This document shows positions 11,866 through 31,972 of a stretch of 64,000 bases of DNA, piece after piece. The translations under genes were made by a program, and so were the position numbers. Under the pieces are notes generated by a model, which did no database searches, was not told the origin of the DNA, and saw nothing but the letters and a program-made list of their open reading frames with translations. Where the stretch lies: contig CBDFLE010000006.1 in assembly GCA_965248925.1 (NCBI GenBank), positions 4,480,001 to 4,544,000 on the forward strand, read 5' to 3'. The DNA comes from Candidatus Multivoradales bacterium. Its GTDB lineage: Bacteria > Acidobacteriota > Thermoanaerobaculia > Multivoradales > J023. How positions within the stretch are numbered: the stretch's first letter is position 1; every line of letters begins with the position of its first letter.

Positions 11866-11867
11866 AA

Positions 11868-12803: not shown

Positions 12804-13429
12804 ACACCAAGATCATCAAGTCGAGTCCGCCGGCCGAGGCGACGAATCCGCACGGCAAAATAATCGAGCGCGAGGTCTTGCTGGCGCACGAGGAAGCCCG
12901 ACGGGTGTTGGTGGAAGCCGAAGTGCAGGCCGCCGCGGTGGTCGAGTCGGCGCGCCAGCAGGCGGCGGCGGTGTTGCGGCGGGCCGAGCGTGAGGGGCAG
13001 GAACGCTCGCTGGCCGATTGGCAGCAGCGTTTGGCGCGGCTCGCCGAGGCGCGTCAGCAAGTGCTTGCCGCTGCTCGGCCACAGATCCTGCGATTGGCGG
13101 TGCGAGTGGCGGAGAAGATCCTCCGCCGTCGCTTGCAAGAGGATCCGGCGGCCTTTGATCCGCTGGTCGAAGAGACTCTGGAGACCGTTCGCGCCCAGCC
13201 CGGACAGCAGATCGTGCTGCGTGCCCATGCCGAGGACCGGGCGCGGCTGGAAGACCTCCGCCGCCGCTTGATCGAGCGCCATCCGGGGTGGAGCAGCCTT
13301 CAGGTTCAGGTCGATCCGGCGATGGCTGTCGGAGGCTGTCGGGTGGAGACGGAGTACGGCACCGTCGACGCTGGCTTGTCGACCCAACTGCGGGCGATCG
13401 AGAAGATTTTGCTGGAAGGCCAAGGATGA
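12800..13429 (+). CDS. sctL: T3SS stator SctL (YscL/FliH)
   Basis: A...A...G helical N-terminus; [20 protein letters not shown]. Confidence 0.9.
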
Positions 13430-14778: not shown

Positions 14779-14779
14779 G

Positions 14780-15271
14780 ATGGCTGCAGCCTATCCCCTG
14801 CAAGCCGTGCTCGAGCTGCGGCGGCGACAACGTGACACCGCCCGCCAGGCCCTCGCCGAGCGCATCGAGGACGAGCACCGCGCCAACCTCGAGCAGACGC
14901 GGCTGCTGCGTCGTGGCGAAAAGTTGGCCGAGGAGGTTCTGCGCGCCAGCTCGCGGCTCTACGAACCGGCCGACGACGGCACTCTAGAAGTGGCCGGCGC
15001 CCTTGATCGCCGCGCTGATTTCGAGCATTGGCAGCAAGAAGTTGCCGAGCAACAGCAGCGGATGGAGCGCCAGCGGCAGGCTATTGCCCAAGCTGCCGCG
15101 GCGATTGATGCCGCGCGCGAAGAGCTACTCGAAGCAACCCGAACTCTCGAGGCTATCGACAAGCACTTCAGCCGCTGGCTGGACAAGATCGCCCGCCAAG
15201 CTCGTCGCCGCGAAGAGCGCCTCGCTGAGGAGATCAACACCAGCCGTTTCGTCAGCGGCCAAAGTGGCTAG
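14780..15271 (+). CDS. sctO: T3SS stalk SctO (YscO/FliJ)
   Basis: YPLQAVLELR start; coiled coil; directly after sctN. Confidence 0.8.
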   Translation: MAAAYPLQAVLELRRRQRDTARQALAERIEDEHRANLEQTRLLRRGEKLAEEVLRASSRLYEPADDGTLEVAGALDRRADFEHWQQEVAEQQQRMERQRQAIAQAAAAIDAAREELLEATRTLEAIDKHFSRWLDKIARQARRREERLAEEINTSRFVSGQSG

Positions 15272-15283
15272 GAGGATTTGCCG

Positions 15284-15904
15284 ATGAGTATCCAACGTCT
15301 TTCCGGATCCCCCGCCTCCGCGGCAAAAACCGCGAAACCCCCTCGCGGTAACTCTGCGCGCCAACAGGCACCCCGCTTTGCGGATGCTCTGGCCAAAGGC
15401 AAGAAGAACTCTCGCCGCGAGCTCTCCACGGAACAGCGGCTGATGGCCAAGGCAGAGCAGCAGCGGCGCGACAACCCAGAAGCCGAGCCGCCCACTGTCC
15501 CTGGCGACCCGTCGTTGCAGCTCGCTGCCGGCTCGGTGCTGGAAGTGGCCGCCAGAGTGGCGCCGAGCGAGGGTGCAGGCACGGCGGCGGCTAGTGGCTT
15601 GGCGGGTAGCGACCAACGAATCCTCGATCAGATGGTCGCGCAGGTGATCAGCGCCGCTCGCACTCTTGATGGCGGCCGTGGCCAACACCTCCAGATTTCA
15701 CTCAACCTGGGTGCCCTGGGGCAGGCTGAGGTCGAACTGCGCAAGGATGCCAACGGCGCCATCGATTTACTCTTCCGCGCTGAGGATGCAGCTGCCGAGG
15801 GAGAACTGGGTCGTGGTCTGAGTGAGCTGCGCCGACGATTGCTGAGCCGCGGCCTGCGTCCTGGCCGTCTCGAAGTACGCCGTGATTCGGAGCAGCGTCG
15901 ATGA
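15284..15904 (+). CDS. SctP/FliK-like length-control protein
   Basis: Disordered N-terminus; C-terminal T3S4-like LQISLN...LGQAEVEL...L..L...L..RG; GGAGG RBS. Confidence 0.65.
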   Translation: MSIQRLSGSPASAAKTAKPPRGNSARQQAPRFADALAKGKKNSRRELSTEQRLMAKAEQQRRDNPEAEPPTVPGDPSLQLAAGSVLEVAARVAPSEGAGTAAASGLAGSDQRILDQMVAQVISAARTLDGGRGQHLQISLNLGALGQAEVELRKDANGAIDLLFRAEDAAAEGELGRGLSELRRRLLSRGLRPGRLEVRRDSEQRR

Positions 15905-17490
15905 CCCCGGCTACCAGCTCTGGCTACCTGCCGCCGGGCAGCGCTCGCGGGCTGCCGTGGGGATTGGAGCTGCCGTGCCGAGGAGGCGAGCAGGTCGCCG
16001 CAAGTGCTGCTCGGGGTCGTATCCGCAGTCTGATCGAAGGGCCGCTAAAACCTTTGGTGGCGGGGGTCGCCGAGGCTCTCGACCTATGGTGGCCGGTGCG
16101 TACCAAAGTGGCCACTGCCGCCGAGTTGGTGGTCGCTGGACCCGACTGTGGCCCGCAGGTGGTGACTTTGCAAGATCCGGTCAGCCGCATTGGCCGTTCG
16201 GCGGCTTGCCAGCTGCGCCTTGACGGGGCGGGGATCGACGCCGAGCACTGTGAGCTGCGGCTTGACGGCGGCCGTCTGTCGCTGCTCGACCTGGGCAGCA
16301 TTAGCGGCACGGTGGTCAATGGCTATCGCTTGCGCCCCTTCGAACCGAGGAGTCTCGAAGCTGGTGACGAGATCTTGCTGGCGCCTTTTTCAATCGTCGT
16401 CGGCGCCTGTGGGCTCGACCCGCGGCAGCAGCCAGCGCGGCTCAGCCTACGCCAGCCGCTGTGGCTCGAGGCCGAGGATCCCTTCACCCGGCTTGGCGCC
16501 GCCACTGATCTTTGGGTGCGGCTGCGGGTTGGCGGTTGGGAGGGCTTCCTCCGCCTGCCCGGTCGGTGGACCGAGCAGGCCTATCAAAGTCTCGATCTGC
16601 AGCTGCCGCCGGGCCGATTTGGCGACGATGAGCTGGATCGGGCGATCGCTTCTTTCTTGCTCGAGAGGGTTGCCGATGCCATCGCGCGCCAGGGTGATCA
16701 GCCGATTTCGCTGGGACAGGTGCTGCCCGCCGAGCTGCTGTGGCAGCGGCAGGGAGCGCTGAGTGCTACCTGGGAAGGGGCGATTTTCGATCTCGAACTG
16801 GCTGGCCGTACCGCGGAATGCGCGGTGATTTGGGCCGCGGAGCAGGCCGAGAACCGGCCTCTGGTCGAGCCGCGATGGTTGGCCGAGTTGCCCTTCACCG
16901 TGTCGGTAGTAGCCGGCAGCCTCGGCCTAGCCATCGACAGCCTGGCCGAGGTCGAGCGCGGCGACATCGTCTTGCCCGATTGCTGGCTGGCGGGCGGCTG
17001 GGTCGCCAGCGAGGCTGAACCGTCCGCGGAGGCGGCTGATCCGATCTCGCTAAAGCTGGGTCGGGTGAGGGCGGTCGTGCAATCTCTCAGCCGATCGGCG
17101 GAACTCGAAGTGTCGCCGGAGAACACCGGGGATTACCATCTGCGCTGGACCGATTCTTGGATCCAGGCAACGAAAGGAGACCCGATGGCGACAGAACGTG
17201 AGGATGAGAGCAACGAGCCGCAAGCGGAAGCCTCTCCTGAGGCACCGATTCAGATACCTAAAGAACTCGAAGTGACGGTTTCCTTCGAGCTCGATCGGTT
17301 ACGGGTGACTCTGGAAGAGCTGAGTTCCTGGTCGCCCGGAGGCACCGTGGAGCTGCAACGAAAACCCTCCGACCCGGTGCGCATCTTGCTGCACCAGGGC
17401 GCTTCGACGCGGGTCATTGGCTCTGGCGCGGTGCTGGTGGTCGATGGCCGCCTCGGGGTTCAGATCGACGATTGGCAAGTGGAGAGCTGA
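15901..17490 (+). CDS. sctQ: FHA-domain / SctQ (FliM/FliN SPOA) fusion
   Basis: FHA RIGRS...H...LLDLGS..GT.VNG; C-terminal SPOA EVTVSFELDR...L.EL.....G...IG.G...VDGRLGVQI. Confidence 0.85.
   Translation: MTPATSSGYLPPGSARGLPWGLELPCRGGEQVAASAARGRIRSLIEGPLKPLVAGVAEALDLWWPVRTKVATAAELVVAGPDCGPQVVTLQDPVSRIGRSAACQLRLDGAGIDAEHCELRLDGGRLSLLDLGSISGTVVNGYRLRPFEPRSLEAGDEILLAPFSIVVGACGLDPRQQPARLSLRQPLWLEAEDPFTRLGAATDLWVRLRVGGWEGFLRLPGRWTEQAYQSLDLQLPPGRFGDDELDRAIASFLLERVADAIARQGDQPISLGQVLPAELLWQRQGALSATWEGAIFDLELAGRTAECAVIWAAEQAENRPLVEPRWLAELPFTVSVVAGSLGLAIDSLAEVERGDIVLPDCWLAGGWVASEAEPSAEAADPISLKLGRVRAVVQSLSRSAELEVSPENTGDYHLRWTDSWIQATKGDPMATEREDESNEPQAEASPEAPIQIPKELEVTVSFELDRLRVTLEELSSWSPGGTVELQRKPSDPVRILLHQGASTRVIGSGAVLVVDGRLGVQIDDWQVES
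17185..17490 (+). CDS. Predicted internally initiated SctQ C-terminal product
   Basis: AAAGGAG at 17173-17179 before an in-frame ATG at 17185, just ahead of the last SPOA domain. Confidence 0.65.
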   Translation: MATEREDESNEPQAEASPEAPIQIPKELEVTVSFELDRLRVTLEELSSWSPGGTVELQRKPSDPVRILLHQGASTRVIGSGAVLVVDGRLGVQIDDWQVES

Positions 17491-17492
17491 GC

Positions 17493-17842
17493 GTGGACAC
17501 TTCTCTTTGGCCCTCTTTGCTCAATGTCGGTGGGGCACTGGTGGTGGTAGTGCTGCTGGCGGTGGTGCTGCTGCGCTTTGCCGCACCCTGGTTGCGACGC
17601 TTGCAGACACCGGAGGCTCGCAGATTTCAGTATTGGAGGTCAAAGCCCTCGATCGCCAGCACCGGGTGGCCCTGCTGCGGGTACGAGAAGAAGATTTTCT
17701 GGTCGCCTTGGGCGCTGGTAGCCCGTGCTTGCTGCGCTGCTGGCCGGCGGGCGACCGTGACCCCAAAGAGCCGGAGGCGCTGGCTTCCGGCACCGCCGAG
17801 ACCAGCCGCAGCGCAACCAGCCGTAGAGAATCCAGCGACTAG
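17493..17842 (+). CDS. fliO: FliO-like protein (one-base frameshift near 17610, probable sequencing error)
   Basis: GTG start and TM helix in one frame; ISVLEVKALDRQHRVALLRVREEDFLVALG (FliO-type) in the -1 frame. Confidence 0.7.
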
Positions 17843-17855
17843 GAGTTTCTCGCCG

Positions 17856-18605
17856 ATGCCTCAGCTAATTCCTCTTTTCGCCATTGCCGGTACAACCGCC
17901 GCCAGTACCGTGCCCAATGCTGCGGCGAGCTTGGGGGCCAATCCTCTCTCCCTGATGCTGTTGCTGGCCCTGCTGTCGATGTTGCCCTTCGTGCTGATGA
18001 TGTCAACCTCCTTCCTGAAATTCGCCGTGGTGCTGTCTCTGCTGCGCCAGGCGCTGGGCACTCAGCAGGTGCCGCCGACGCCGGTGATCATGGGCCTTTC
18101 GATGATCTTGACGGTCTATGTGATGTCGCCGGTGCTGGGTGAGGTCTATGCCGAGTTGGAGCCGCAAATTGTGGCCACTGACTCCACCGAGATGCTGTCG
18201 GGAAAGGGAGCTGAGACTGTGTTGGGGGCGCTCAAGCGGGCGGCGCCTGCACTCAAAGGTTTCCTGGTCAAGCATGCTCATGGTCGCGAAGTGGAAGCGT
18301 TTCATGCTTGGTCGAACATGCTGCGCAGCGGGGCCACCGGGGTCGAACCACTGGCTCGCGACAGCTTGTTGGTGCTTATTCCGGCCTTCGCTGTCTCTGA
18401 ACTCAACGAGGCCTTCACCATCGGTTTCTTGCTCTTCTTGCCCTTCTTGATCATCGACATGGTGGTGTCGAACATCTTGCTGGCGATGGGCATGCACATG
18501 CTCTCGCCGGTGGTGGTGTCGCTGCCCTTCAAGCTGTTGCTGTTCATCATGATCGATGGTTGGGCCCTGCTTACCCGAGGGTTGTTACAGCCATACTTTG
18601 TCTGA
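17856..18605 (+). CDS. sctR: Export gate SctR (FliP family)
   Basis: TSFLKFAVVLSLLRQALGTQQVPP; PAFAVSELNEAFTIGF; SLPFKLLLFIMIDGW; AGGAG RBS. Confidence 0.95.
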   Translation: MPQLIPLFAIAGTTAASTVPNAAASLGANPLSLMLLLALLSMLPFVLMMSTSFLKFAVVLSLLRQALGTQQVPPTPVIMGLSMILTVYVMSPVLGEVYAELEPQIVATDSTEMLSGKGAETVLGALKRAAPALKGFLVKHAHGREVEAFHAWSNMLRSGATGVEPLARDSLLVLIPAFAVSELNEAFTIGFLLFLPFLIIDMVVSNILLAMGMHMLSPVVVSLPFKLLLFIMIDGWALLTRGLLQPYFV

Positions 18606-18656
18606 ACCGCGTCGAGCCGGCGGACCATCGAGTCGCCACGGCTGGGAGTCCACTTC

Positions 18657-18923
18657 ATGGAAAGCCACATCATAGATCTCCTACAGCGCGCCATCCTGGT
18701 GACCGTGATGGTCTCAGGGCCACCGATCGCTGCCGCCATGGTGGTGGGTCTGGGGCTGGCCCTGGTGCAAGCCTTAACCCAGGTGCAGGAGCAGACCCTG
18801 CAGATGGCGTTCAAGATCATCGCCGTCTTTGGAACCCTGTCGGTGCTGGGCTATTGGATGGCCAATCAAGTGCACGCTTTCGCCCGTCTGGTGTTCGAGA
18901 ACTTCGGTACTTGGGTGGGTTGA
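18657..18923 (+). CDS. sctS: Export gate SctS (FliQ family)
   Basis: QALTQVQEQTL; 88 aa hydrophobic. Confidence 0.95.
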   Translation: MESHIIDLLQRAILVTVMVSGPPIAAAMVVGLGLALVQALTQVQEQTLQMAFKIIAVFGTLSVLGYWMANQVHAFARLVFENFGTWVG

Positions 18924-18932
18924 GGGGGCGCT

Positions 18933-19772
18933 GTGACCACCGGGCTCGAAGCATTCTTCACCCCGCTCGCCGCCGAGCTGGGAGTGCGCCACGGTCTTGA
19001 GGGCACCTTGCGCTTGCTAACCCTGGCGATGGCCCGCTGGGCACCGATCATTACCTTGGCGCCGTTCATGGGTGGCCGCTTGATCCCGGCGCCGGTGCGG
19101 ATGGGTTTGCTGGTGCTGTTCTCGCTGCTGGTGTTGCCGGCGATCAGCCAGACGGCGCCGCGGCCCTTGTTGATTGGCCCCGTCGAGTGGTGGGCGCTGG
19201 TGCTGAAGGAGACCTTCATCGGTCTGGTGATCGGATTCGCTGCCTCCCTGGTGTTTTGGGGTGGTGAAATGGGCGGCCGTTTGATCGACACGGTGCGTGG
19301 CACCACCACCGCCAACTTATTGATCCCCCAAGCCAAAGTGCAGAGCACGATTCTCGGCGATGTCTACTTCCAGCTTTTCATCGTGCTCTATCTAGTGTCC
19401 GGCGCTCACCTCTTCTTTTTCGCCGCGGTGGCCGATTCCTACCGTCTACTGCCACCCACCGAGTTGACTTTGAATCTCGGTGGTGGGGCCGAACTCTGGC
19501 TACTGGCGGTGGGAAACCTTTTTGTCATCGCGGTCAAGATCATTGCTCCGGCGCTGGTGGTGGTGATGTTTCTCGACATAATGTTGGGGGTGGCCAACCG
19601 CATGGCGCCGCAGCTCAACGTTCACTTCTTGGGCATGTCGTTGAAGGCATCATTGGCGTCTTTGGCGTTGTCTTTGTCGTTGTACTACGTGCTGTCAATG
19701 GCCGGTGACCTCTTCGCTGACCAGCAGCGCTGGATCGAGCTGCTATTTCGCCAGTTGTCTAGACCTGGCTGA
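18933..19772 (+). CDS. sctT: Export gate SctT (FliR family)
   Basis: KETFIG..IG; G.LID..RG; NRMAPQLNV. Confidence 0.93.
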   Translation: MTTGLEAFFTPLAAELGVRHGLEGTLRLLTLAMARWAPIITLAPFMGGRLIPAPVRMGLLVLFSLLVLPAISQTAPRPLLIGPVEWWALVLKETFIGLVIGFAASLVFWGGEMGGRLIDTVRGTTTANLLIPQAKVQSTILGDVYFQLFIVLYLVSGAHLFFFAAVADSYRLLPPTELTLNLGGGAELWLLAVGNLFVIAVKIIAPALVVVMFLDIMLGVANRMAPQLNVHFLGMSLKASLASLALSLSLYYVLSMAGDLFADQQRWIELLFRQLSRPG

Positions 19773-19786
19773 GTAGGAAGCAGACG

Positions 19787-20905
19787 ATGTCTGAAAAGAC
19801 CGAACAACCCACCCCCAAGAAACTGCGCGATGCCCGGCGCAAGGGCAACATCGCCTTCAGCCGTGATTTCAATGGCATCGTTACTTACATCGTGGGTCTG
19901 GCGTTGGTCTTCGTCGCCGCTGGGGGCATCGCGCGGGGCTTTCGCGACTTCTATGTCGAGGTCATCGAAGTGATCGCTATCGGCAACTTCGAGGACGGAG
20001 CCTGGGCCGAGATGACTGGCCGTGCTTTGTCGACGGTCTTTGCCATGTCGGCGCCCTTCATGCTGGCGGTGGCCCTGGTTGGTGGGGTGGTGGGTTTTCT
20101 CCAGGCCGGGCCACTGTTTTCTACCGAGCCCTTGGTGCCGAAGCCGGAGAAGCTCAATCCGCTGAATAAGCTCAAGCAGTGGTTCGCGCCCAAGGGTCTG
20201 TTCGAGTTGGCCAAGTCTGCGCTCAAGCTGGGTTTGATTTTCTGGATCGGCTGGCTAGTGCTGCGCGGCAGCTCGGGGCAGCTGCTACAGCTCGGTCTGC
20301 TCGGCGAGCGCGAGTTGCTGATCTTTCTGGCCTCACACGTCAAGCTCTTCCTGGCCATCATCGGCTTCGCCTTTCTGATCTTGGGGGTGGTCGACGTCCT
20401 TTTCCAGCGTTGGCAGTGGCGGCGCGGTCTGCGGATGTCGAAAGACGACATCAAGCGCGAGTGGAAGAGTGCGGAAGGCGACCCCTTGATCAAGTCGCAG
20501 CGCAAGGCCCTGCATCGCAGCATGGCGGCGGATGGCGGTGCCGCTGGCGCGACCAAGAAGGCGGCGGCGGTGGTGGTTAATCCCACCCACCTGGCGATCG
20601 CTCTGGAGTTCGACGAAGGCGCCGGGCAAGCTCCGGTGGTGGCGGCCAAGGGCCAGGGCAAGTTGGCCAAGCAGATCTTGCGGGTGGCGCGCCGGCATCA
20701 AATTCCGATTATTCGCAACAAGCCGCTGGCCTGGCAGCTGCTGGAGATCGACGTCGAAGAGGAGATTGACCCCGATCTCTATGAAGCAGTGGCGGAAGTG
20801 ATTTTGCTTGCCCGCAAGCTGCAAGCGCGGGCCGCCGGCGAGGTCGCTGACGAACCGGAGGATGATCCAGATGAGCCTTCCCATGGCTCGGAATCGGTGC
20901 CTTGA
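19787..20905 (+). CDS. sctU: Export switch SctU (FlhB family)
   Basis: MSEKTEQPTPKKLRDARRKG; EGDP; NPTH autocleavage motif. Confidence 0.96.
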   Translation: MSEKTEQPTPKKLRDARRKGNIAFSRDFNGIVTYIVGLALVFVAAGGIARGFRDFYVEVIEVIAIGNFEDGAWAEMTGRALSTVFAMSAPFMLAVALVGGVVGFLQAGPLFSTEPLVPKPEKLNPLNKLKQWFAPKGLFELAKSALKLGLIFWIGWLVLRGSSGQLLQLGLLGERELLIFLASHVKLFLAIIGFAFLILGVVDVLFQRWQWRRGLRMSKDDIKREWKSAEGDPLIKSQRKALHRSMAADGGAAGATKKAAAVVVNPTHLAIALEFDEGAGQAPVVAAKGQGKLAKQILRVARRHQIPIIRNKPLAWQLLEIDVEEEIDPDLYEAVAEVILLARKLQARAAGEVADEPEDDPDEPSHGSESVP

Positions 20906-20998
20906 GTAGACCCTTATGGCCCGCTAGCTTGGCGATGAGACACGGTCGATGGATCTGCCGGTAGATTTGCCGGTAGACCTTAGAGTTACAGCGAAAGG

Positions 20999-23197
20999 AT
21001 GACACCCGTGAAGACCCCCACCGTACCCGCCACTGATCTGAGAGCGCTCCACGCCAAGCTTACCGCCGGCGATCTGGCGACGGTTCTGACCCGCTACAGC
21101 GACATTATGTTGGCAGTGGTGGTGATCTTGTTGGTCGGCATCATGATCATCCCGATGCCGGCCTTTCTGCTCGATTTCTTCCTGGCCACCAACATCACCA
21201 TGGCGGTGACCTTGTTGATGATCTCGCTTTATCTGCCGAATGCGCTGTCGCTGGCGTCTTTTCCGTCGATTTTGCTGATCACCACTCTCTTTCGCTTGTC
21301 CCTCAATGTCTCTTCGACCCGGCTGATCTTGCTCAAGGGAGATGCCGGGTCGGTGATCGAATCGTTCGGCCAGTTCGTGGTGGCGGGTGACTTCATCGTT
21401 GGTTTTGTGATCTTCCTGATCATTACCCTGGTTCAGTTCCTGGTCATCGCCAAGGGGGCCGAGCGGGTCTCGGAGGTCGGCGCCCGCTTCACTCTCGATG
21501 CCTTGCCGGGTAAACAGATGTCAATCGACGCCGATCTGCGCTCGGGGCTGATCGATGTCACCGATGCCCGGCTTCAACGTCAAAACGTGCAACGAGAAGC
21601 ACAGTTTTACGGCGCCATGGATGGGGCGATGAAGTTCGTCAAGGGCGATGCTATTGCCGGCATCATTATTTCGGTGATTAACATCGCTGCCGGCCTCGCC
21701 ATCGGCGTGGCGGTCAAGGGGATGGCGGTTGGGGCGGCGGCCGAGAAGTACACCCTACTGACCATCGGCGATGGCCTGGTGTCGCAGATTCCGTCGCTGA
21801 TCATCTCGATGGCGGCGGGCATCATCACCACCCGAGTGGCCTCGGCCGACCCCAACGACCCTGACGCCGAGAGTTCCCTCGGCGCCGAGATCGGCACCCA
21901 AATCCTGTCGCAGCCCAAAGCGATCGCTATCGCGGCGGTGATGCTAATGCTGCTCGGCGCCATTCCCGGGTTGCCGATGGTGCCGTTTTTCGCCCTCGCT
22001 GGCGTCACTGGCACCTTGGCTTACAGCTTGATCAAGACCCGCCGGCAGAAAGAACTCGAGGCAGTGCGAGCGGAGTTCGTCGAGCCAGCGATGGAACTCG
22101 CCGGCAACGAGAAATCTCGCCTGCCGATGACCGTGCCGGTGCTGCTCGAAGCCAGCCCCGAGGTCACCCCCTTGGTCGATGCGGAGGGCGGCGGCTCGCG
22201 TTTCACCGACGAGCTGGTGCCGCAGATGCGCGAGTGGTTGTTTGGCGAACTCGGGGTCTTGTTCCCGGGCGTTCGGGTACGGGGCGATTCGGCTCACCTG
22301 GAGAGCCACAGCTATACCTTGTTCGTCAACGAAGTGCCGGTGGCGCGCGGTGTGGCGATGGCTGACCGGGTGTTCGTTGGCGATAATCTGGAGCAGATCC
22401 TGATGCTCGGCATCGAGGGGGTGCGCGGGCCCCACCACAGCGCCGACCGGGATGGCCTGTGGCTCAGCCCGGAGGAGGCGCGCCAAGTCGAGCAGGCGCA
22501 GGGGGGTGGCGCTTTCATGCAGCCCGAGGAGTTTATCGTCGTCCATCTGTCGAATGTCTTGCGGCGCAAGGTCGACGAGTTGATCGGCATCCAGGACGTG
22601 CAGAACATCCTCGACCTGATGGAGCAGCAGGGTTTCGAAGCCCTGGTCCAGGCGGTGGTACCGCGGTTGATCTCGGTACCCCAGCTGACCGAGATCATGA
22701 AACTGCTGCTCGCCGAGGAGATCTCGGTCAAGAATATGGTGGCGATTCTCGAAGCCTTGGCGCGCACTGGCGCCTCGGAATCAGACCCCATGGTGTTGGC
22801 CGAACACGTGCGGGTGGGCCTGAAGCGCTACATCGGCTTCAAATTCTCCCGCGGCCGCTCGGTGGTGCCGGTCTATCTGATCGATCCGCAGATCGAGCAG
22901 CAGGTCCAGGCGGCGCTGCGCAAGACTGCCAACGGTACCTCGCTCCAGCTGGCGCCCGAGGCCAGTCGGCAGATTGTCAGTGCATTCCGCGATATCCTCG
23001 GCGCGGCCGAGGCCGAAGGCCCGCCGATCGTGCTCACCCAGATGAATGTGCGACCGCATGTCAAGCAGCTGCTGGCGCGCGCCCACCCCGAAGCGGCGGT
23101 GCTGTCGTTCCAGGAGCTGCCCAGTGATTTGCAGCTGCAGCCGGTGGGCAGGATCACCTTGGATCAGCCGCAACTCGCCGCCAGTCCGGCCGAGTGA
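20999..23197 (+). CDS. sctV: Export gate SctV (LcrD/FlhA family)
   Basis: ERVSEVGARFTLDALPGKQMSIDADL; GAMDGAMKFVKGDAIAG. Confidence 0.97.
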   Translation: MTPVKTPTVPATDLRALHAKLTAGDLATVLTRYSDIMLAVVVILLVGIMIIPMPAFLLDFFLATNITMAVTLLMISLYLPNALSLASFPSILLITTLFRLSLNVSSTRLILLKGDAGSVIESFGQFVVAGDFIVGFVIFLIITLVQFLVIAKGAERVSEVGARFTLDALPGKQMSIDADLRSGLIDVTDARLQRQNVQREAQFYGAMDGAMKFVKGDAIAGIIISVINIAAGLAIGVAVKGMAVGAAAEKYTLLTIGDGLVSQIPSLIISMAAGIITTRVASADPNDPDAESSLGAEIGTQILSQPKAIAIAAVMLMLLGAIPGLPMVPFFALAGVTGTLAYSLIKTRRQKELEAVRAEFVEPAMELAGNEKSRLPMTVPVLLEASPEVTPLVDAEGGGSRFTDELVPQMREWLFGELGVLFPGVRVRGDSAHLESHSYTLFVNEVPVARGVAMADRVFVGDNLEQILMLGIEGVRGPHHSADRDGLWLSPEEARQVEQAQGGGAFMQPEEFIVVHLSNVLRRKVDELIGIQDVQNILDLMEQQGFEALVQAVVPRLISVPQLTEIMKLLLAEEISVKNMVAILEALARTGASESDPMVLAEHVRVGLKRYIGFKFSRGRSVVPVYLIDPQIEQQVQAALRKTANGTSLQLAPEASRQIVSAFRDILGAAEAEGPPIVLTQMNVRPHVKQLLARAHPEAAVLSFQELPSDLQLQPVGRITLDQPQLAASPAE

Positions 23198-23225
23198 GCG
23201 GTGACCGGCAAGGAGAGAGCGCGAG

Positions 23226-23795
23226 ATGTCATTTCAGGTGTTGGTGCAGAATCCGGCGGGCGAGGTGCTGCGCTGGGAGCTGGATAAGAGTTCGGTCTAC
23301 CTCGGCCGTCTCGAGGGCAATGACATTCGTCTCACCCATTCGTTTGTCTCGGGCCTGCACTTGTTGATCGAGCGTCGCGGTAGCGGCTTTGTGGTCAAGG
23401 ACTTGGGTTCTACCGAGGGAACCCTGTTGCGGGGCAAGGTGATCGAGCCGCACGTCGAACAGTCCTGGCGCTTCGGCGAGTCGTTGCAGATCGGTAATCT
23501 GGTGTTGCAGGTAGAGCCGGGAGAGGACGAGACCCTGGTCGAAGTGCTGCCCGAGTCCCTGACGGTCGGTGTCCGCGGGGAGCTACCGGCGGTTTCCGCA
23601 GCGAGCGCCCTGGGATCCGGCGCGGACGTCATCGACGCAGTTCCCAACGCCGCTGATGGCAACATCTTCGACACCGCGGCCAGCCCGCCGCGTGCGCCTG
23701 CGCGGCCGTTGCCTTGGGGGCTGATACTGCAATTCCTGGCCGCTTTCGTGGTCCTCGCCGGCGTCATGTTAGCGGTCGTCACTTTGTTGCTTTAG
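23226..23795 (+). CDS. FHA-domain protein with C-terminal TM helix
   Basis: LGR...SGLH...KDLGSTEGT; hydrophobic tail. Confidence 0.85.
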   Translation: MSFQVLVQNPAGEVLRWELDKSSVYLGRLEGNDIRLTHSFVSGLHLLIERRGSGFVVKDLGSTEGTLLRGKVIEPHVEQSWRFGESLQIGNLVLQVEPGEDETLVEVLPESLTVGVRGELPAVSAASALGSGADVIDAVPNAADGNIFDTAASPPRAPARPLPWGLILQFLAAFVVLAGVMLAVVTLLL

Positions 23796-23804
23796 GAGTT
23801 CTTC

Positions 23805-25562
23805 ATGGCGCCTGCAAAAATGCATGGAATTCTTCGTCTCGAGCAAGGCGAGGAGATTTTGGCTGAACTCGAGCTGACCCCGGGCCGGCCGGTGATTCTG
23901 GGTCGCTCCGAGCAGGCCGAGGTGCGGGTGCAGCACGCAACGGTGTCGCGTCGCCACGCCCGCCTGTGGATCGATGCTGAGGGTGCCCAACTAGAGGATC
24001 TGGGCTCATCCAACGGCACTTTGCTCGACGGCCAGAAAATAGAGGGCCAGGTGACCCTGGCCGATGGCCAGCGAATTCAGCTCGGCCAGCGAACAGTCGC
24101 CGAGCCGGTGAAAATTCGCTTTGAGGATCCGGCCGCCGGTGTGCTGCGGGAGATGGGGTTGTGGGACGATTCGCCAGCAGCCAGAACTAGAGCCGGGTCG
24201 TCGGCGGATGAAGAGGCGCCGGCTGAGAGCGGGCGAGAAGGGGCTGCGGCAACCGCTCCGGCAGGCACCAATTTGCCGGCCACCGATTCGTCGGCGGCAG
24301 CCTCCCCCTCCGCCGGCGAACGTCGGGTCGGCGAAGAGCTGCGAGATCCTCGGGTATTGTTGATCCTGGCCTTCGCTTTGGTGTTGGTGGCTGGCGCCAG
24401 CATTGGCTTGCTACGCTTCCTGCGTCCCGCGGCGACTTATTGGCGCTCAGTGCAGATCATGCCGGCGGAAATCGGTCCCGATGTCGCGGTGCGGCTGTCT
24501 AGTTTCGATATTGGCCGGGCTAGTGGACTGGAACTGTTGCTCGGTGACACGCCGGTAGAAGACTTGCAAGTCGAACGCGGCCGGCTGAGCTTTCGCGCTC
24601 CCCAGCTCGACACCCTGGGCGGCGGCAAACTCGGCTTACCGCTGGTGGCTCGGCGCGGTGGGGTGGAGGTCTATCAGCGGGTATTGACCTACAACGTGGT
24701 GCCGCGACTCGACCCTCTGCCGATCGAGCAGCTGCCGGTTGGCGAAGTCCTGACCTTGAGCGGTCGCGGGTTGCACGAAGATGCCAGCAAGATCGCGGTC
24801 TACTTTGGCGAGCAAGCTGGCTGGGTGCTAGAGAGCGATTCCCGGACCGTTCGCGTCCGAGTGCCGCCGGTGTTAGCTCAAGACTCGCCGCCGCGCTTGG
24901 CCTTGCGGGTCGAAGTGGATGGCTTGCGCGCCGCCGCTCCGCTGCCGGACTTCGCTATCTTGCCGTGGATTGGCGAGCCACTTCGACTGGAGCTGAGTGC
25001 CTCCTTTCGCGACCCGGTTGATGACACGGCTGGCGCTTGGCAGCTGCACCACGCCTTAGGTCCGGCTTATGTCCTGGACGGCCCGGCGCCGGCCGCGGAC
25101 GGTTCTTTGCCGGCAGCCGTGGCGCAGGTGATCGAGCGTTGGAATCAACTGTTCGAAGTCGTTGAGCGCGATCCGAGGGTCCGTCTCGTCGGCCGGACGG
25201 CGGCGGAGTCGTGTGAGCTGGTGGCGGTTGGTGGGGCGGTGGGTGGAGCAGGCTTGAGTGTTGCCCGGTTCGCCCGTGGAGAGTTGGCGCTGGCCCTCGG
25301 CTTGCGGCCTGACGACCTCTCTAACCGCAATCTCTGCGCCCGTACCGCCAGTGTGTGGGATCACCTGCTCAATGCCTTTGCCAGGGGTCAGGAAGTGCGG
25401 GGCCTGGCCAGTCCGCCGCCCTATGTCAGGGTACTTGATCGACTGGTTGCGGCCAGCCGTTGGCGGGGTGGTAATGGGCGTCCGGCGGCCAGCGATCTAG
25501 TGGTGCTGGACGCCACCGATCGCGAGCGTTTGGCTCAGGCCTTTGCTAACCCTGGAGGCTGA
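23805..25562 (+). CDS. FHA - TM - IPT/TIG-like protein
   Basis: Canonical FHA (LGRS, VSRRH, DLGSSNGT); TM helix; GEVLTLSGRGL......VYFG...VRVRVP is IPT-like. Confidence 0.75.
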   Translation: MAPAKMHGILRLEQGEEILAELELTPGRPVILGRSEQAEVRVQHATVSRRHARLWIDAEGAQLEDLGSSNGTLLDGQKIEGQVTLADGQRIQLGQRTVAEPVKIRFEDPAAGVLREMGLWDDSPAARTRAGSSADEEAPAESGREGAAATAPAGTNLPATDSSAAASPSAGERRVGEELRDPRVLLILAFALVLVAGASIGLLRFLRPAATYWRSVQIMPAEIGPDVAVRLSSFDIGRASGLELLLGDTPVEDLQVERGRLSFRAPQLDTLGGGKLGLPLVARRGGVEVYQRVLTYNVVPRLDPLPIEQLPVGEVLTLSGRGLHEDASKIAVYFGEQAGWVLESDSRTVRVRVPPVLAQDSPPRLALRVEVDGLRAAAPLPDFAILPWIGEPLRLELSASFRDPVDDTAGAWQLHHALGPAYVLDGPAPAADGSLPAAVAQVIERWNQLFEVVERDPRVRLVGRTAAESCELVAVGGAVGGAGLSVARFARGELALALGLRPDDLSNRNLCARTASVWDHLLNAFARGQEVRGLASPPPYVRVLDRLVAASRWRGGNGRPAASDLVVLDATDRERLAQAFANPGG

Positions 25563-26635: not shown

Positions 26636-27277
26636 CTACTTGGCGAGCGACTTCGCCGCCGCCAACACGACCTCGGCGCTGAGCCGCTGGCGGTAGTCGG
26701 GATTGACGTATTGGAAGTTGATCACTCCATCGGTGCCGACCAGGAAGACCGCTGGCACGGGCAGTTCCCAATGCCCCTTGCCGGTGCGTTCAACCAGGTC
26801 GATGCCATAGCCGCGGTAGACCTTCTTGGTCTTCTCGCCGAGTTTGAAAGCGATGCCGAAGGCGCGCGCTGCTTGCATTTCACTGTCGGCTAGCAGGCGG
26901 AACCGCCATTCGTTCTTGCCCGCGCCCTCTTGCAAGTTTTCAGGTTTGTCGGGAGTGATGGCGAGGATTTGAAAGCCTGTCTTCGCCAGCTCTTCTTCAA
27001 TCGTGCGCAGCTGACCCAGCTGCGTAACGCAGTACGGTCACCAGCCGCCACGGTAGAAGATCAGCACCGTAGGTTGCAGGGCGACCAGCTCGCGCAGCTC
27101 GACGGCTTTGCCATCGGCGTCATGCAGGGTCACCGCCGGCACTTGACTGCCGTTCAGCAGGGGCCGAATCTCTTCGGCGGATGGGGCCGCGGTCGGCGAT
27201 TCAGCCACTGCGGGGGCCGCGATGGCCAGCAGAAGAGCCAGGGTTGCCGCCGCGATCGGCGAGTTGATTCTCGACAT
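26636..27277 (-). CDS. Secreted AhpC/TSA peroxiredoxin-like selenoprotein (UxxC), 213 aa
   Basis: In-frame TGA at 27040-27038 gives FYRGGW-U-PYC. The frame continues to LPVPAVF...NPDYRQR and a SECIS-like hairpin follows. Confidence 0.85.
27006..27024 (-). promoter_or_regulatory. Bacterial SECIS-like hairpin
   Basis: CGCAGCUG-GGU-CAGCUGCG, starting 13 nt after the UGA, with the G-initiated loop 21 nt from the UGA. Confidence 0.65.
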
Positions 27278-27743: not shown

Positions 27744-27964
27744 ACTTTCTCGCTAGGCTGTCCGGCGCGTCGGCCGGTCTACATCAGGACGGTACGAAGA
27801 CCTCATCGATCGAGGGTTCAGCATCTGGGCGCTATGGCAAGAGAATACGGGTATTATCGGGTTTGACCAAAGTCGGGGCGTCAATCAGTAGGCATAGCGA
27901 CGAAAACTCCCAAGATTGGTGCGGTTTGAAGGATCTGTCTGCGCTCCGGTACACTGCCGTTACT

Positions 27965-29401
27965 TTGAGTCAGGTCGAAGATATCTACGGTGCCTTGCTG
28001 AATAGCCTGAAGCGTGATGTTGATCGCGCCCGGCCAGGAGTAGTGCTTTCCCGGCTGGGTCGTTCCGAGGGTTATCTGCGCAATGTCTGGCATGGGCGCA
28101 GCTCGATCTCGCTGCGTCGTTTTCTGGAAGTGATCGAAGCGACCGGTTCGACGCCCGCACGCTTTTTCGAGAAGTCCTTCGATACGACACCAAGTGCCGA
28201 GACCTTCCTGCTTGCGATGGCGGGAGAACTCGTAGATCGCCGGCTTCCGGATGCCTTGAACGAGACCTTGATGGCTGGGATCGAAGGATCCCAGCCGGCG
28301 CGAAACCGGCCGGGCTTCGATCGCGAAGAAGCGGTCGAGAGGCTGGCGCAGAAGAGTGTGGCAGGCCAGCGACGCTTGCTTTGTAGAACTCAGCAGTATC
28401 GAGACGTGGAGTTTCTTCAGCTCTATCTGGAATATTTGGACGAGATGCGCTTCGATCATCGGCAGCAGGCGGCGCGGCTTGCCGAGACGATAGCGCTGAA
28501 GGTCGCGCCCCAGGCCTTTGGAACTCCCGCGCAATGTACCTCTCTTTTCTGCAAGGCACTAGGTATTCTCGCTTCCGCCGAAAGGATCAGTGGCCATCTG
28601 GCCAAAGCCGCCGCGGTGATTGGAGTCGCCCTGGCTGCAGCTAGGAAACGCGATCTCAAGCAGGCTAGAGCACGGCTGTTGGTTTGTTCTAGTTCGGTGT
28701 TGCGCGACAATTCTCAGCCGAACCGGGCCTTTCTTCTGCTTCGCGAAGCGCAGGAAATCTACTTCGACTGCGATGACATGGTTGCCTTGGGGCAAGTTTC
28801 TATTGCTCGCGCGATCCTCTACTGCGAGTTGGGCTCCTATCCGGAAGCTCTGCGTTGCTACGATCGTGCGCTGATGCTGCTGCCGAGCCCAAATCGCACG
28901 CTGCGCCGCTGGCGTATGGCCTGTCATCAGGGGGCGGCTTTGGTGCATTTTCGTTTGAACGATTTCGACCAAGCCGAGCTGTGCCTGGCTGACGCGAGAG
29001 GTGAAAGTAGTGGCGAGAGCCACCACAACCGTGCCAAGCTTTTGCGGCTCGAAGGTCGGGTGGCGATTCGGCGTGGTGAGCATGAACGGGCCGAGCACCT
29101 TCTTCATCGAGCTTGGGGGTTGTTCAGCACTCGTAGTGATCCAAGGGCGCTCTTGACTCAGCTCGATCACTTGGAATCCCTGCTGTTGCGAGGGTGGATC
29201 ATGGAGTCTCACAAGCTAGCAAACCATGTGGTCGCTAGTTTGCTCCGCAAACCTGAACTCAGCTCGATCAAGCCACTCGCCATAGACCTGAAGCGTGCCG
29301 TGGCTCAACAGCGCCTCACCGTGACGTTGATTCGCGAAGCTCAAGACCGAGCTGAGCGGCTTTGTTCGCCAAGCCAGTACCTATCGAGCTTCGGCATCTG
29401 A
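27965..29401 (+). CDS. XRE-like HTH plus TPR-repeat regulator (start uncertain)
   Basis: LSRLGRSEGYLRNVWHGRSSISL..FL.V.EA.G..P..FF HTH-like segment followed by several TPR-like helix pairs. Confidence 0.7.
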   Translation: MSQVEDIYGALLNSLKRDVDRARPGVVLSRLGRSEGYLRNVWHGRSSISLRRFLEVIEATGSTPARFFEKSFDTTPSAETFLLAMAGELVDRRLPDALNETLMAGIEGSQPARNRPGFDREEAVERLAQKSVAGQRRLLCRTQQYRDVEFLQLYLEYLDEMRFDHRQQAARLAETIALKVAPQAFGTPAQCTSLFCKALGILASAERISGHLAKAAAVIGVALAAARKRDLKQARARLLVCSSSVLRDNSQPNRAFLLLREAQEIYFDCDDMVALGQVSIARAILYCELGSYPEALRCYDRALMLLPSPNRTLRRWRMACHQGAALVHFRLNDFDQAELCLADARGESSGESHHNRAKLLRLEGRVAIRRGEHERAEHLLHRAWGLFSTRSDPRALLTQLDHLESLLLRGWIMESHKLANHVVASLLRKPELSSIKPLAIDLKRAVAQQRLTVTLIREAQDRAERLCSPSQYLSSFGI

Positions 29402-29407
29402 GGTTTG

Positions 29408-29473
29408 TTACCCGTTTGGGTCGATGGCCATGCCCCATTTCTGACATGCATTTGCAGAGTTCTTGTTCAGCAT
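29408..29473 (-). CDS. 21-aa peptide MLNKNSANACQKWGMAIDPNG
   Basis: AGAGGAG RBS (29490-29484) 10 nt before ATG; stop 6 bp from the HTH-TPR stop; AT-rich upstream region. Confidence 0.55.
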   Translation of the reverse strand: MLNKNSANACQKWGMAIDPNG

Positions 29474-29910
29474 TCTCGTATTTCTCCTCTTGGTCGCGAT
29501 CCGTACTGCACTGTGTTGTGTTGAGAATGTTTTAGAAGAGATTTCTCTTTCGTTCAGAGGTATTCGAGGTACTCGAAATTTATGGTCCTATTTGTCCCCT
29601 AATTCGCCACAATTTTGATTGTTTTGATAGAAAAATGAAGATTCATGTGTTTAGTGGTGCTTTGCGTAGATAATTTGCATATTTGATCCAATATATTCAA
29701 TATTCGGCAATCCTCCGCGCCTTGAGATGCTGAAGGATTTTTTGACTCGGACTCGCATTCCTTGTGGAATGCGCAGCTCTGCTGCCGGTAAGACCAGCAA
29801 GTTACTGCCGCCAGCGGGTTCTTGCGCTACCGCTTTGGACTTCCTCGACCGGAATGGCCCCGGATGGATGGGGTCTTTCGCTGTTTCGGCCTGCTTCTAG
29901 CGGACTCGGC

Positions 29911-31212
29911 TCAGCGCTGATCGACGACGATCCGGCCACCGACCATCACGAAGTCGACCCGCTCGATGGCGTGGATGTCTTTGAGGGGGTTGCCTGACAC
30001 GGCGATCAGGTCGGCCAGTTTGCCGGCGGCAAGGATGCCGCGATCGTCAACGCCAAGCAGGTCGGCGGCGGCCAGGGTAGCGCTTTGCAGGGCCGCCAAC
30101 GGGGTCATGCCGCGATCTACCAGGACGCCGAACTCGCGGCCGTTGTCGCCGTGGGGATAGACCGCCGCATCGGTGCCGAAGGCGATCTTGACGCCTTCGC
30201 GAATTGCCTTTTCCAAGCTGGCCTTGGCCAGCGGCAGGATGCCCTTGGCTTTGGCGCGGATTACAGGTGGCAGGTTGTCGAGATCGATGGCCTCGACCAG
30301 GTAGGTGGTCGGTACCAGGTAGGTGCCGCGCGCTTTCATCTCGGTGATGATTTCGTCGGTCAGCATGGAGCCGTGCTCGATCGATGCGACTCCGGCTAGC
30401 ACCGCCGCCAGGATGCCTTCAGAGCCGTGGGCGTGAGCGGCTACTTTGAGGCCGTGGCGGGCGGCTTCTTCGACCGCCACGCGCATCTCCTGGTCGCTGA
30501 ATTGCTGGGCGCCCACCGGCCCCTCGAAGGACAGCACCCCGGCGGTGGCGCAGATCTTGATCACCTGGGCGCCGTGCTTGATCTGGTAACGCACCGCTCG
30601 CAGCACTTGGTCGGGGCCATCAGCGACACCGCTCTCTGGACCCGATTCCGCGAACCCCGGCGCGTAACCGGTGGTGTCGCAGTGGCCGCCGGTGATTCCC
30701 AGGCTGTGGCCGGCGGCAATGATCCGCGGGCCGTCGACGAAGCCTTGCTCGATGGCATTGCGCAGGGCGATGTCGGCGAAGCCGCTGGAGCCTACGTTGC
30801 GCACCGTGGTGAAACCCGCGGCCAAGGTCAGGCGGGCGTTGCGGACGCCGCGCAGGGCCGCTTCCGCCGCTGTCGTGGTAACGCCGCGATGCCGCCATTT
30901 ACCACTGAGATCGAAAGTCAGGTGGGTGTGCATGTCCATCAGGCCGGGCAGCAGAGTGCGCTGGCCAAGCTCGATCACCTCGAGGCCGTGAGCCAGTTCC
31001 GGGCCGCCGACCGCGACTATGTGCTCGCCCTCGACCACCACCACGCGATCGCTCAGTAGTTGGCCGGACTCGATATCGAGCAGGTGAGCCGCCCGCACTG
31101 CGAGGCGGGTGGGCAGGGTCTCGGCCAGCGATGTCCCAGGCAACAAGGCCAGCGGCGCGAGAAGAACCTGGGTGACGAGGAAGACCTGGCTGAGGTGCTT
31201 ACAGCGGCCCAT
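29911..31212 (-). CDS. Amidohydrolase family (Xaa-Pro dipeptidase-like)
   Basis: PGLMDMHTH; GFTTVRNVG; AAHAHG; SIEHG; FGTDA; GKLADLIAV. Confidence 0.92.
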   Translation of the reverse strand: MGRCKHLSQVFLVTQVLLAPLALLPGTSLAETLPTRLAVRAAHLLDIESGQLLSDRVVVVEGEHIVAVGGPELAHGLEVIELGQRTLLPGLMDMHTHLTFDLSGKWRHRGVTTTAAEAALRGVRNARLTLAAGFTTVRNVGSSGFADIALRNAIEQGFVDGPRIIAAGHSLGITGGHCDTTGYAPGFAESGPESGVADGPDQVLRAVRYQIKHGAQVIKICATAGVLSFEGPVGAQQFSDQEMRVAVEEAARHGLKVAAHAHGSEGILAAVLAGVASIEHGSMLTDEIITEMKARGTYLVPTTYLVEAIDLDNLPPVIRAKAKGILPLAKASLEKAIREGVKIAFGTDAAVYPHGDNGREFGVLVDRGMTPLAALQSATLAAADLLGVDDRGILAAGKLADLIAVSGNPLKDIHAIERVDFVMVGGRIVVDQR

Positions 31213-31213
31213 C

Positions 31214-31972
31214 TCAAGAGTCTTCTGAGTTGGTTGGAGTCTCGCCATCGACGGCGGGTGGCGGCGCGCCAGTGTCTTCCACCACCGGCTTGCTGGCGTT
31301 GGCCTGAACCTCGGCCAAGGCTAGTAACAACTCAGCGTGCAGGCTGAGGATGGCTTGCCGTTGTTTGCGGTTGAGGCGCAGCCGCTGGTCGCAGTTCTTG
31401 CAGTTGATCCGCTGCTGATCGAAGCCGACGATGCGGTCGACGATGGCTGTCAGCTCGCCGGAGAGGGCCCCCAGCTGCTGGCCGATAGCGTCGCGCTGGG
31501 CCCGCTCATCGGCCAGCGCACCGTCGATCGCAGTGCTGATGGAGCGGGTGTCTTTGCCTACGGTTTTGAGCGCCTCGAAGGTGGCGTCGAGACGCAGCTG
31601 GATATCGTGGTTGTCCTGGTTGAGCAGCTCAAAACCCTTCATCACGGTGGCGAAGTAGTCGTCTAGGTAGGCCGAAACCTCGTTCTCGACTTGCTCGGGC
31701 ACTAGTTCGAGGATGCGTTCCCGTTCTTCGTGCAGCTCGGTCAAGGCGCGTGGTACGGCTTCGATGACCGAATTCTCCATCTCTTCCCAGCGGCGGTTTT
31801 CGCGATCGAATCTCTGTTCCCAAGCGATCACCGACGCCTCAGCGCGGGCGCGCTCTTCATCGCAGGTTGCGAGCTGGGCTCGGAGTTCTTCGACTTCGGC
31901 CTTCGAGGCACAGCCGAAGCTGAGCAGGAATAGGGCGATCAGGAGCAAGGCGGAGAGCGGTCGCAAGAGCAT
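31214..31972 (-). CDS. Coiled-coil lipoprotein
   Basis: Lipobox LSFGC; heptad-rich; CKNC near the C-terminus. Confidence 0.7.
   Translation of the reverse strand: MLLRPLSALLLIALFLLSFGCASKAEVEELRAQLATCDEERARAEASVIAWEQRFDRENRRWEEMENSVIEAVPRALTELHEERERILELVPEQVENEVSAYLDDYFATVMKGFELLNQDNHDIQLRLDATFEALKTVGKDTRSISTAIDGALADERAQRDAIGQQLGALSGELTAIVDRIVGFDQQRINCKNCDQRLRLNRKQRQAILSLHAELLLALAEVQANASKPVVEDTGAPPPAVDGETPTNSEDS

Follow-up and report, generated by a model that had tools for sequence, protein, structure and literature searches.

A 21-residue peptide gene convergent with an HTH-TPR receptor gene in an acidobacterium: a candidate receptor-peptide cassette

Can an open reading frame (ORF) of only 21 codons, lying tail-to-tail with a regulator gene, be a gene in its own right, and would its product then act on the regulator encoded beside it? 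The question is raised by a 64,000-nucleotide stretch of the Candidatus Multivoradales bacterium genome (contig CBDFLE010000006.1, positions 4,480,001 to 4,544,000), which we call the window. A small ORF on its minus strand converges there with a gene for a protein with a helix-turn-helix (HTH) domain and tetratricopeptide repeats (TPR), here called the receptor. The initial annotation, made from the letters alone, proposed a peptide-signalling pair like the RRNPP systems of Firmicutes. The elements on which that proposal was built are all confirmed: the minus-strand ORF at 29473-29408, its AGAGGAG ribosome-binding site, and a distance of 6 nt (29402-29407) between its stop codon and that of the receptor gene, whose TGA ends at 29401. 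Comparison within this genome and with its relatives confirms the 21-residue ORF as a real gene, a member of a large and undescribed family of tiny peptide genes that lie tail-to-tail with receptor genes. The same sequence comparison shows that the gene pair is conserved and under selection as protein. Whether the pair works as a signalling cassette is a matter of graded probability, and it is weighed below against four rival explanations.

Small peptide genes beside receptor genes

A tblastn search with the receptor found 23 places in the 8.0-Mb genome, and 22 paralogues were examined. A convergent small ORF ending in x-P-x-G accompanies 21 of the 22, with its end -20 to +6 nt from the receptor stop. 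Iterated searching with jackhmmer drifted into all TPR proteins (207 matches), and the family counts rest on a family profile with a bit-score cut. By this measure 31 ORFs score above 100 bits, and 26 of them have a convergent ORF with the motif [aromatic]-G-x-x-I-x-P-x-G-stop; above 200 bits, the motif ORF is present beside 22 of 23. The control considered any convergent ORF ending -30 to +45 nt from a stop codon and compared the family genes with the 8666 other ORFs of at least 200 aa. The ending [ILVMYFW].P.G-stop occurs beside 21/23 family genes and 20/8666 other ORFs (Fisher p 7e-50; paralogues are not independent draws, so such pairing p-values are overstated). The strict form, G..[ILVMYFW].P.G-stop, occurs beside 16/23 family genes compared with 1/8666 others. 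The sole high-scoring family gene with no motif peptide (414 bits; G000:C6:3817830-3819305, or L140:6004-7473) has a profile match that stops at 433 of 477, and an intact cassette lies 2.6 kb further on; it is thus probably a decaying duplicate.

The initial annotation had singled out the ending DPNG. A conserved C-terminal motif does stand beside the homologues, but it is wider than that ending and reads [F/Y/W/H]-G-x-x-[I/V]-x-P-x-G. The narrow form DP[ND]G-stop occurs six times in the six frames of the whole genome, two of them beside family genes, and 22 distinct terminal 9-mer cores are found within this one genome. Codon usage was counted over 37 distinct cores from this genome and its relatives, with Pro(-2) and the terminal Gly fixed by the search pattern. 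Pro(-2) is written CCG in 14 cores, CCC in 12, CCA in 7 and CCT in 4; the terminal Gly is GGC in 23, GGT in 7, GGA in 4 and GGG in 3. Since all four codons are found at each of the two invariant residues, Pro and Gly, the constraint acts on the peptide. Positions outside the search pattern are conserved also: Gly(-7) in 31/37 cores (four codons), Ile(-4) in 29/37 (three codons) and one of F, Y, W or H at position -8 in 23/37.

The structure of the precursors delimits the core. An ATG start was assigned to 33 of 35 peptide genes, and a GGAG-type purine run is seen just upstream of nearly all of them. The two-core peptides of this genome consist of back-to-back 9-mers (for example, FRSVIKPSG-WSTAILPNG), and these together with spaced tandem cores define a unit of nine residues. 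The spaced arrangement is that of a relative's precursor of 123 aa (L026), in which a signal peptide precedes five copies of FGPLVEPNG with 6-aa spacers; another of 119 aa (L036) has about eight tandem cores, and three of 86-87 aa (L014, L018 and L021) each join a signal peptide to one C-terminal core. The lack of a signal sequence that was noted at first for the window's peptide is therefore not general, as Sec-type signal peptides are present in four relatives' precursors of 86-123 aa (L014, L018, L021 and L026). Three precursors from relatives (P0005, P0006 and P0007; 87-94 aa, with signal peptide) carry the core between two Cys residues 17-19 residues apart, a spacing that suggests a possible disulfide-closed loop in the exported form of this subgroup.

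Databases hold next to nothing of these peptides. No Pfam or NCBIfam model matched any of 28 peptides with E <0.03 or near its curated cut-off (0/28), and a peptide-profile search of 5.8 billion proteins returned the query's own record only. The peptides are almost wholly absent from public annotation, so such systems are invisible to standard pipelines. A search with the long precursor forms returned five hypothetical proteins. Their source names bear out a link to Thermoanaerobaculia that the initial annotation had mentioned: one relative's precursor is named "Thermoanaerobaculia bacterium" and others "Acidobacteriota bacterium".

The receptor is better represented, and its distribution is narrow. 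Homologues at E<=1e-8 are present in 20 of 23 genomes of the taxonomic family f1, and 86 of 151 genomes of the order match at E<=1e-30; full-length matches in the order are confined almost wholly to f1 (20/21) and some genomes of f2. In a phylum-wide sample, 6 of 201 genomes match at E<=1e-20, all of them from the same order or class. The receptor family counts 983 cluster representatives at E<=1e-30 among 1.84 billion. A motif peptide stands beside homologues in at least 12 other genomes of the order (the pair is found in G010, G004, G017, G019, G014, G021, G023, G013, G001, G018, G256, G238 and G024), so that the conserved small ORF near the regulator, on which the first proposal hinged, is found both here and in relatives. 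In the retrieved loci of the relatives, the motif ORF adjoins 14 of 33 family ORFs.

Table 1. Features of the cassette, in window coordinates
Feature	Position	Strand	Description
Receptor gene	27965..29401	+	478 aa plus stop; N-terminal XRE-type HTH, then TPR superhelix
HTH domain	27965..28189	+	Residues ~1-75, five helices; from family profile and domain model, Pfam silent on the window copy
TPR superhelix	28301..29368	+	Residues ~113-468, ~16 helices; from Pfam, DSSP on the model and VIA-align; presumed peptide-binding domain
Peptide gene	29408..29473	-	21 aa plus TAA; MLNKNSANACQKWGMAIDPNG
Predicted mature core WGMAIDPNG	29411..29437	-	Last nine codons of the peptide gene; deduced from tandem repeats in paralogues and relatives and from column counts
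Shine-Dalgarno AGAGGAG	29484..29490	-	10-nt spacer to the ATG of the peptide gene
AT-rich stretch	29480..29710	no strand	Upstream of the peptide gene; presumed promoter site; contains two short palindromes

The receptor protein and its match to the peptide

The HTH-plus-TPR make-up given to the receptor by the initial annotation is confirmed by separate lines of evidence for its two halves. The N-termini of the family align from 27965, the start of the 478-aa form; the 491-aa form found in the public protein collection begins at an alternative TTG codon at 27926. Pfam recognizes TPR_2, TPR_1, TPR_12 and TPR_MalT in the window's receptor, and TPR_12 in 24 of 27 family members. No Pfam HTH model matches the window's receptor even at E<=10; HTH_3 is found in 7/27 members and HTH_31 in 4/27, and the receptor of one relative (L011) matches HTH_31 with E 4.1e-6. 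A profile of 23 family N-termini matches XRE-type HTH structures in the Protein Data Bank (3bs3, 1.3e-4; C.BclI, 2.2e-4; ClgR, 3.5e-3). An AlphaFold2 model of residues 1-95 (predicted local distance difference test, pLDDT, 88) fits XRE-family folds in all rows listed, with TM-scores of 0.66/0.76 to 3f6w and a root-mean-square deviation of 2.7 over 77 columns. The model of the whole receptor, built on a 27-row family alignment, reaches pLDDT 90.2 and a predicted TM-score of 0.81. It begins with five helices, followed by a linker and about 16 repeat helices, and shows neither signal peptide nor membrane helix.

The repeat domain is similar to TPR superhelices that hold peptides, taken as a class. 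Structural comparison of residues 113-468 of this model by VIA-align 2 places eukaryotic peptide-binding scaffolds at the top. APPBP2 in complex with its RxxGP degron (Z 24.7) and LGN complexes (Z 23-24, the best 23.9) precede Rap phi3T with its pheromone (22.3) and NprR (21.8 over 313 residues). By sequence, the RRNPP matches are NprR (4gpk/5dbk, E 1.1e-8) and RapF (1.2e-5), which rank below unrelated TPR proteins, NprR being no better than kinesin light chain or LGN. NCBIfam has no model for the receptor protein. The PADLOC defence models give no match for the window's receptor and only generic TPR models for 2/27 members, and a word-based protein search with the receptor retrieved the receptor itself only.

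How would such a superhelix hold the peptide? Four polar residues on its inner (A) helices are conserved among 37 receptors: R207 in 36, D401 in 32, N432 in 32 and R241 in 31. The peptides invariably end in a free Gly and nearly all receptors have Arg207, which suggests that the receptor may recognize the C-terminus of the peptide. Carboxylate-clamp TPR domains of Hop/Sti1 bind the EEVD-COOH terminus of their ligands in this way. Hop/Sti1, LGN and APPBP2 differ from the receptor in being eukaryotic scaffolds with no DNA-binding domain and no genetic pairing with a ligand gene. Complex prediction for the window's receptor and the 21-aa peptide scored 0.00 in two runs; the partner is shorter than the calibration set of the tool, and the score speaks neither for nor against binding. 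Two loci whose motif ORFs look like chance (L031 and L043) were left out of the polar-residue counts and of the helix-enrichment count given below.

Receptor and peptide have diverged together. The comparisons that follow leave out receptor envelopes shorter than 300 aa. In a maximum-likelihood tree, the window's receptor falls outside the 25-member expansion of this genome, and its nearest clades belong to other genera, whose peptides read GP-x-[IV]-[ED]-P-x-G. The core is the same in the 4 receptor pairs of at least 98% identity, and at 73-82% identity 2-5 of the 9 core positions differ (mean 3.4, 8 pairs); the core diversifies fast among close paralogues. Two receptor positions covary with position -3 of the core. 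Lys or Arg at 227 is found in 11/21 receptors whose peptides have Asp or Glu at -3 compared with 0/18 of the others, and Asp or Glu at 313 in 1/21 compared with 13/18. This covariation is consistent in charge, each state occurs in at least two separate clades, and the window's own pair (R227, L313 and D(-3)) agrees with the pattern.

What the gene pair may do

On balance we consider it fairly probable that the pair is a receptor-peptide cassette working like the RRNPP and Rgg-SHP systems of Firmicutes. The small gene would be translated to the 21-aa precursor, whose active part would be the C-terminal nine residues, WGMAIDPNG, in keeping with the consensus aromatic-G-x-x-I-x-P-x-G and its free C-terminal Gly. 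This core would be set free in the producing cell or once exported, and would bind the concave groove of the TPR superhelix. Binding would alter the interaction of the XRE-type HTH with DNA and so change transcription next to the cassette: that of the peptide gene in every case and, in many paralogues, that of a divergent giant RHS gene as well. The initial annotation had placed an RRNPP-like module in a diderm. Its conserved pairing and receptor domains hold up; we infer the binding of peptide to the TPR domain, processing, export and re-import, the DNA target, the sign of regulation and signalling itself.

Among the known systems, NprR-NprX of the Bacillus cereus group is the closest in size and architecture. 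Both receptors are cytoplasmic and place an N-terminal XRE-type HTH before a long TPR superhelix; in both systems a small propeptide gene stands next to the receptor gene, and the C-terminal part of its product is the signal (for the peptides here, the presumed mature signal). NprR is the best RRNPP match to the receptor by sequence (4gpk/5dbk), a match limited to one TPR stretch. The receptor here is longer, at ~480 aa. The NprX precursor consists of a signal peptide and a C-terminal core, as do some of the relatives' precursors. The gene nprX is downstream of nprR and co-directional with it, whereas the peptide gene here is convergent and often overlaps the 3' end of the receptor gene. The core motif has no counterpart in NprX, and the host here is an acidobacterium, a diderm.

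Rgg-SHP and ComR-ComS of streptococci come closest to the short, leaderless, convergent peptide of the window. They share leaderless peptides of ~17-40 aa with a C-terminal active part, regulators made of an XRE HTH and helical repeats, and several paralogous pairs per genome; the N-terminal profile of the family weakly matches the Rgg structure 4yv6 (E 0.13). The SHP gene can be convergent with the rgg regulator gene. Rgg is shorter, ~285 aa, with a shorter repeat domain, and SHP cores are hydrophobic and not known to end in Pro-x-Gly. SHP peptides are exported by PptAB and processed by Eep, according to PMC7564271 and PMC11323143. Rap-Phr, of Bacillus, phages and plasmids, is the closest in number and mobility of cassettes, with many diversified paralogues per genome that are often on mobile elements. 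Rap binds its peptide in the groove of the TPR superhelix (solved complexes, Z 21-22), which is the mode that we would expect here. The differences are that Rap has no HTH and that Phr peptides are 5-6-mers. Rap proteins act on response regulators, and phr is downstream of rap, overlapping it on the same strand. Rap-Phr propeptides, too, can have their core duplicated in tandem, as PMC11343458 describes.

Several observations weigh against a working cassette of this kind. A secreted peptide would have to cross the outer membrane of a diderm in both directions, and neither the window's peptide nor any of the 22 terminal cores of this genome has a signal peptide for export. The fold match is not specific to RRNPP: APPBP2, LGN and subunits of APC equal or beat Rap and NprR, and with Z scores tied across TPR proteins, membership of RRNPP by descent is not demonstrated. 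No motif ORF adjoins 19 of the 33 family ORFs of the relatives. The covariation at 227 and 313 derives from few independent transitions and has an exception (C6:3821910, with E313 and an E(-3) peptide). Receptor columns associated with the peptide are in inner helices in 15/20 cases, and a control label that follows phylogeny only gives the same 15/20, so that this test is uninformative. The window's receptor has C241 in place of Arg and L432 in place of Asn at the conserved groove sites and sits on a long branch of the tree (1.37). This branch, the loss of R241 and N432, and an HTH that Pfam does not see mean that the window's copy could be drifting.

A smaller though appreciable probability goes to the same pair and the same binding with no signal between cells, the leaderless peptide being a cytoplasmic co- or anti-regulator of its own receptor in a private feedback loop. 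The peptides of this genome that end in a core are without signal peptide in all 22 cases, and at most loci the two genes overlap at their 3' ends or come close to doing so (-20 to +7 nt), which couples their expression; a preprint (PMC13692066) reports that transcription factors can be controlled by their cognate RRNPP-type peptides when these are expressed inside cells. Yet lack of a leader is not lack of export, as the leaderless SHP and ComS are exported by PptAB according to PMC7564271. The Sec signal peptides and multi-core precursors of the relatives make sense only for exported and processed peptides, and a pherotype-like diversity of cores is expected of signals that are told apart between cells. 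It is improbable that the peptide is instead the regulated product, a small exported effector (bacteriocin-like, adhesion-related or linked to RHS), with the HTH-TPR protein a local transcription factor that senses something else. Such an effector would agree with the 12 of 28 cassettes that stand directly before giant RHS genes and with the many-core tandem precursors, which resemble those of products. It would not account for the one-to-one pairing of receptor and peptide, which has persisted over more than 20 duplications with the two diverging in step, for the covariation by charge of receptor columns with peptide position -3, or for the sampled relatives' cassettes, which have no RHS gene (0/47 neighbours).

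Two further explanations concern the nature of the small ORFs, and we regard both as quite unlikely, the latter extremely so. The ORFs might encode precursors of ribosomally synthesized and post-translationally modified peptides (RiPPs), with an enzyme-modified C-terminal core and the TPR protein as pathway regulator or recognition partner. A conserved core between variable flanks, multi-core precursors, the two Cys that flank the core in one subgroup and weak NCBIfam matches of the receptors (HaaT in 9/27, best 6.2e-8; FxSxx-COOH TPR in 3/27) all have a RiPP flavour. The HaaT and FxSxx matches are, however, to generic TPR repeats, and none of the 28 peptides matches a model of NCBIfam or Pfam at the thresholds given above. 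No modifying-enzyme family recurs among 114 neighbours in this genome or 47 in relatives, and radical SAM, YcaO, lanthipeptide and peptidase-transporter genes are absent from the neighbours scanned. Alternatively, the ORF is not a gene, and the conserved stretch past the receptor stop acts as DNA or RNA, for instance as a terminator or an antisense RNA. Its site directly 3' of the receptor gene is the usual position of a terminator. Such an element would not explain synonymous third-position variation at invariant amino acids, a frame, ATG and Shine-Dalgarno kept across genera, or motif repeats in tandem and in frame; Rfam has no family match anywhere in the window. The codon evidence effectively excludes a non-coding origin.

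The cassette reading can be widened, and here we are tentative. Thermoanaerobaculia may own a peptide-pheromone family, either independent of the Firmicutes RRNPP or long diverged from them, in which each 9-residue Pro-x-Gly-COOH core has a private HTH-TPR receptor and more than 20 pherotype-like cassettes, many of them gating giant RHS toxins, coexist in one genome. If cassettes do gate RHS toxins, the peptide code would decide when, or against whom, contact-dependent toxins are made, and a regulatory link to the RHS arrays would tie peptide signalling to kin discrimination among soil bacteria of which little is known. PMC10075063, PMC9765709, PMC7564271 and PMC12998947 assign the RRNPP(A) systems to Firmicutes or Gram-positive bacteria and their mobile elements. 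We found no paper linking RRNPP to Acidobacteria or Thermoanaerobaculia in a literature that lacked most subscription journals. Firmicutes, with their phages and plasmids, are seen as the characteristic bearers of peptide signalling through cytoplasmic TPR receptors. A conserved and diversifying family in a diderm phylum would extend such signalling beyond them, and one would then have to ask by what route short peptides pass two membranes. With more than 20 natural receptor-ligand pairs and a 9-residue code, the family would be useful for studies of specificity and for orthogonal switches.

Upstream sequence and genomic surroundings

The stretch upstream of the peptide gene, from which its transcription might start, is AT-rich as the initial annotation described, with 35% GC over 29500-29699 in a genome of 62% GC. 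Only 3 of 79,797 200-nt windows of the genome have a GC fraction <=0.36; the gap at 29480-29710 is thus among its most AT-rich spots, and its sequence is unique within the genome. The two palindromes that the annotation pointed out are present (6-bp arms, at 29536-29549 and 29563-29577), but they are not above chance: a scan for terminator-like sites found 1 compared with 0.7 expected in shuffled sequence, a repeat search did not report them, and no operator is supported. No sigma-70-like site was found in 29300-29960. Upstream of 15 peptide genes of the window's clade, the top 6-mer is GC-rich and occurs in 11/15 sequences (<=9 in shuffles), and no common operator can be read from 6-, 7- or 8-mers.

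Relatives of this clade have a conserved nested hairpin in the ~45 nt directly upstream of the Shine-Dalgarno of the peptide gene. Of its 12 predicted pairs, 5 show compensatory changes (L011:1268-1363, L036:3252-3347 and L015:3075-3170, with six more sites aligned). Either a leader RNA structure or a DNA site could account for it, and the window's own leader does not have it.

RHS genes are the most conspicuous neighbours of the cassettes. They were identified by phmmer with the genome's own RHS proteins, which gave 44 ORFs; a regular expression for YD repeats was too strict (10 matches). Seventeen of the 44 are within 3 kb of a family gene. In the 12 cassettes with a giant RHS-repeat ORF directly behind them, it follows 28-591 nt past the receptor stop on the receptor strand. 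The RHS ORFs beside cassettes run from ~380 to 5100 aa as open frames, some of them split, and are divergent from the peptide gene. The window's own cassette has no RHS neighbour, and neighbours vary among the relatives. Receptor-peptide-RHS modules number six on contig C4 and three on contig C5. They form arrays at 147-284 kb of C4 and 0-64 kb of C5 (G000; L141, L146-L153), each module having a receptor, a convergent peptide and a giant RHS gene of up to ~5100 aa with DUF6531 and Ig-like domains. The receptor is at least 99.5% identical among three array modules, which may be genuine repeats or products of duplication in the assembly.

Among the 114 neighbours scanned in this genome, RHS genes, a RadC-JAB gene with two unknown genes, small Pterin_4a-like genes and transposases recur, and two small contigs carry plasmid-type genes. 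The RadC-JAB gene and its two companions are seen at L137, L139, L142, L143 and L164. Small Pterin_4a genes (PCD/DCoH-like) adjoin cassettes in three genomes: this one (L141, L149, L150, L152, L153 and L155) and two relatives (L160:5725-6141 and L162:3671-4063, in G004 and G017). The genome also holds two genes for binding proteins of Opp/Dpp type, which permit peptide import and do not demonstrate it.

Close to the window's cassette, the next gene on the peptide side encodes an amidohydrolase (29911-31248, minus strand); the peptide gene is ~440 nt downstream of it, behind a stretch of 35-45% GC. A second cassette, at G000:C6:4477523-4479443, lies ~560 nt before the start of the window beside RHS fragments. 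Between the two cassettes is a non-flagellar type III secretion cluster (window 11026-25562) with YscJ, an EscN-type ATPase with T3SS_ATPase_C, FliP/SctR, SctT, SctU, SctV FHIPEP and two YscD-like FHA proteins. A redoxin/AhpC-TSA-like gene on the minus strand (26636-27277) is split in two ORFs, of which 27038-27277 carries the signal peptide and the start of the fold and 26636-26935 the C-terminal part; it is probably a frameshifted pseudogene.

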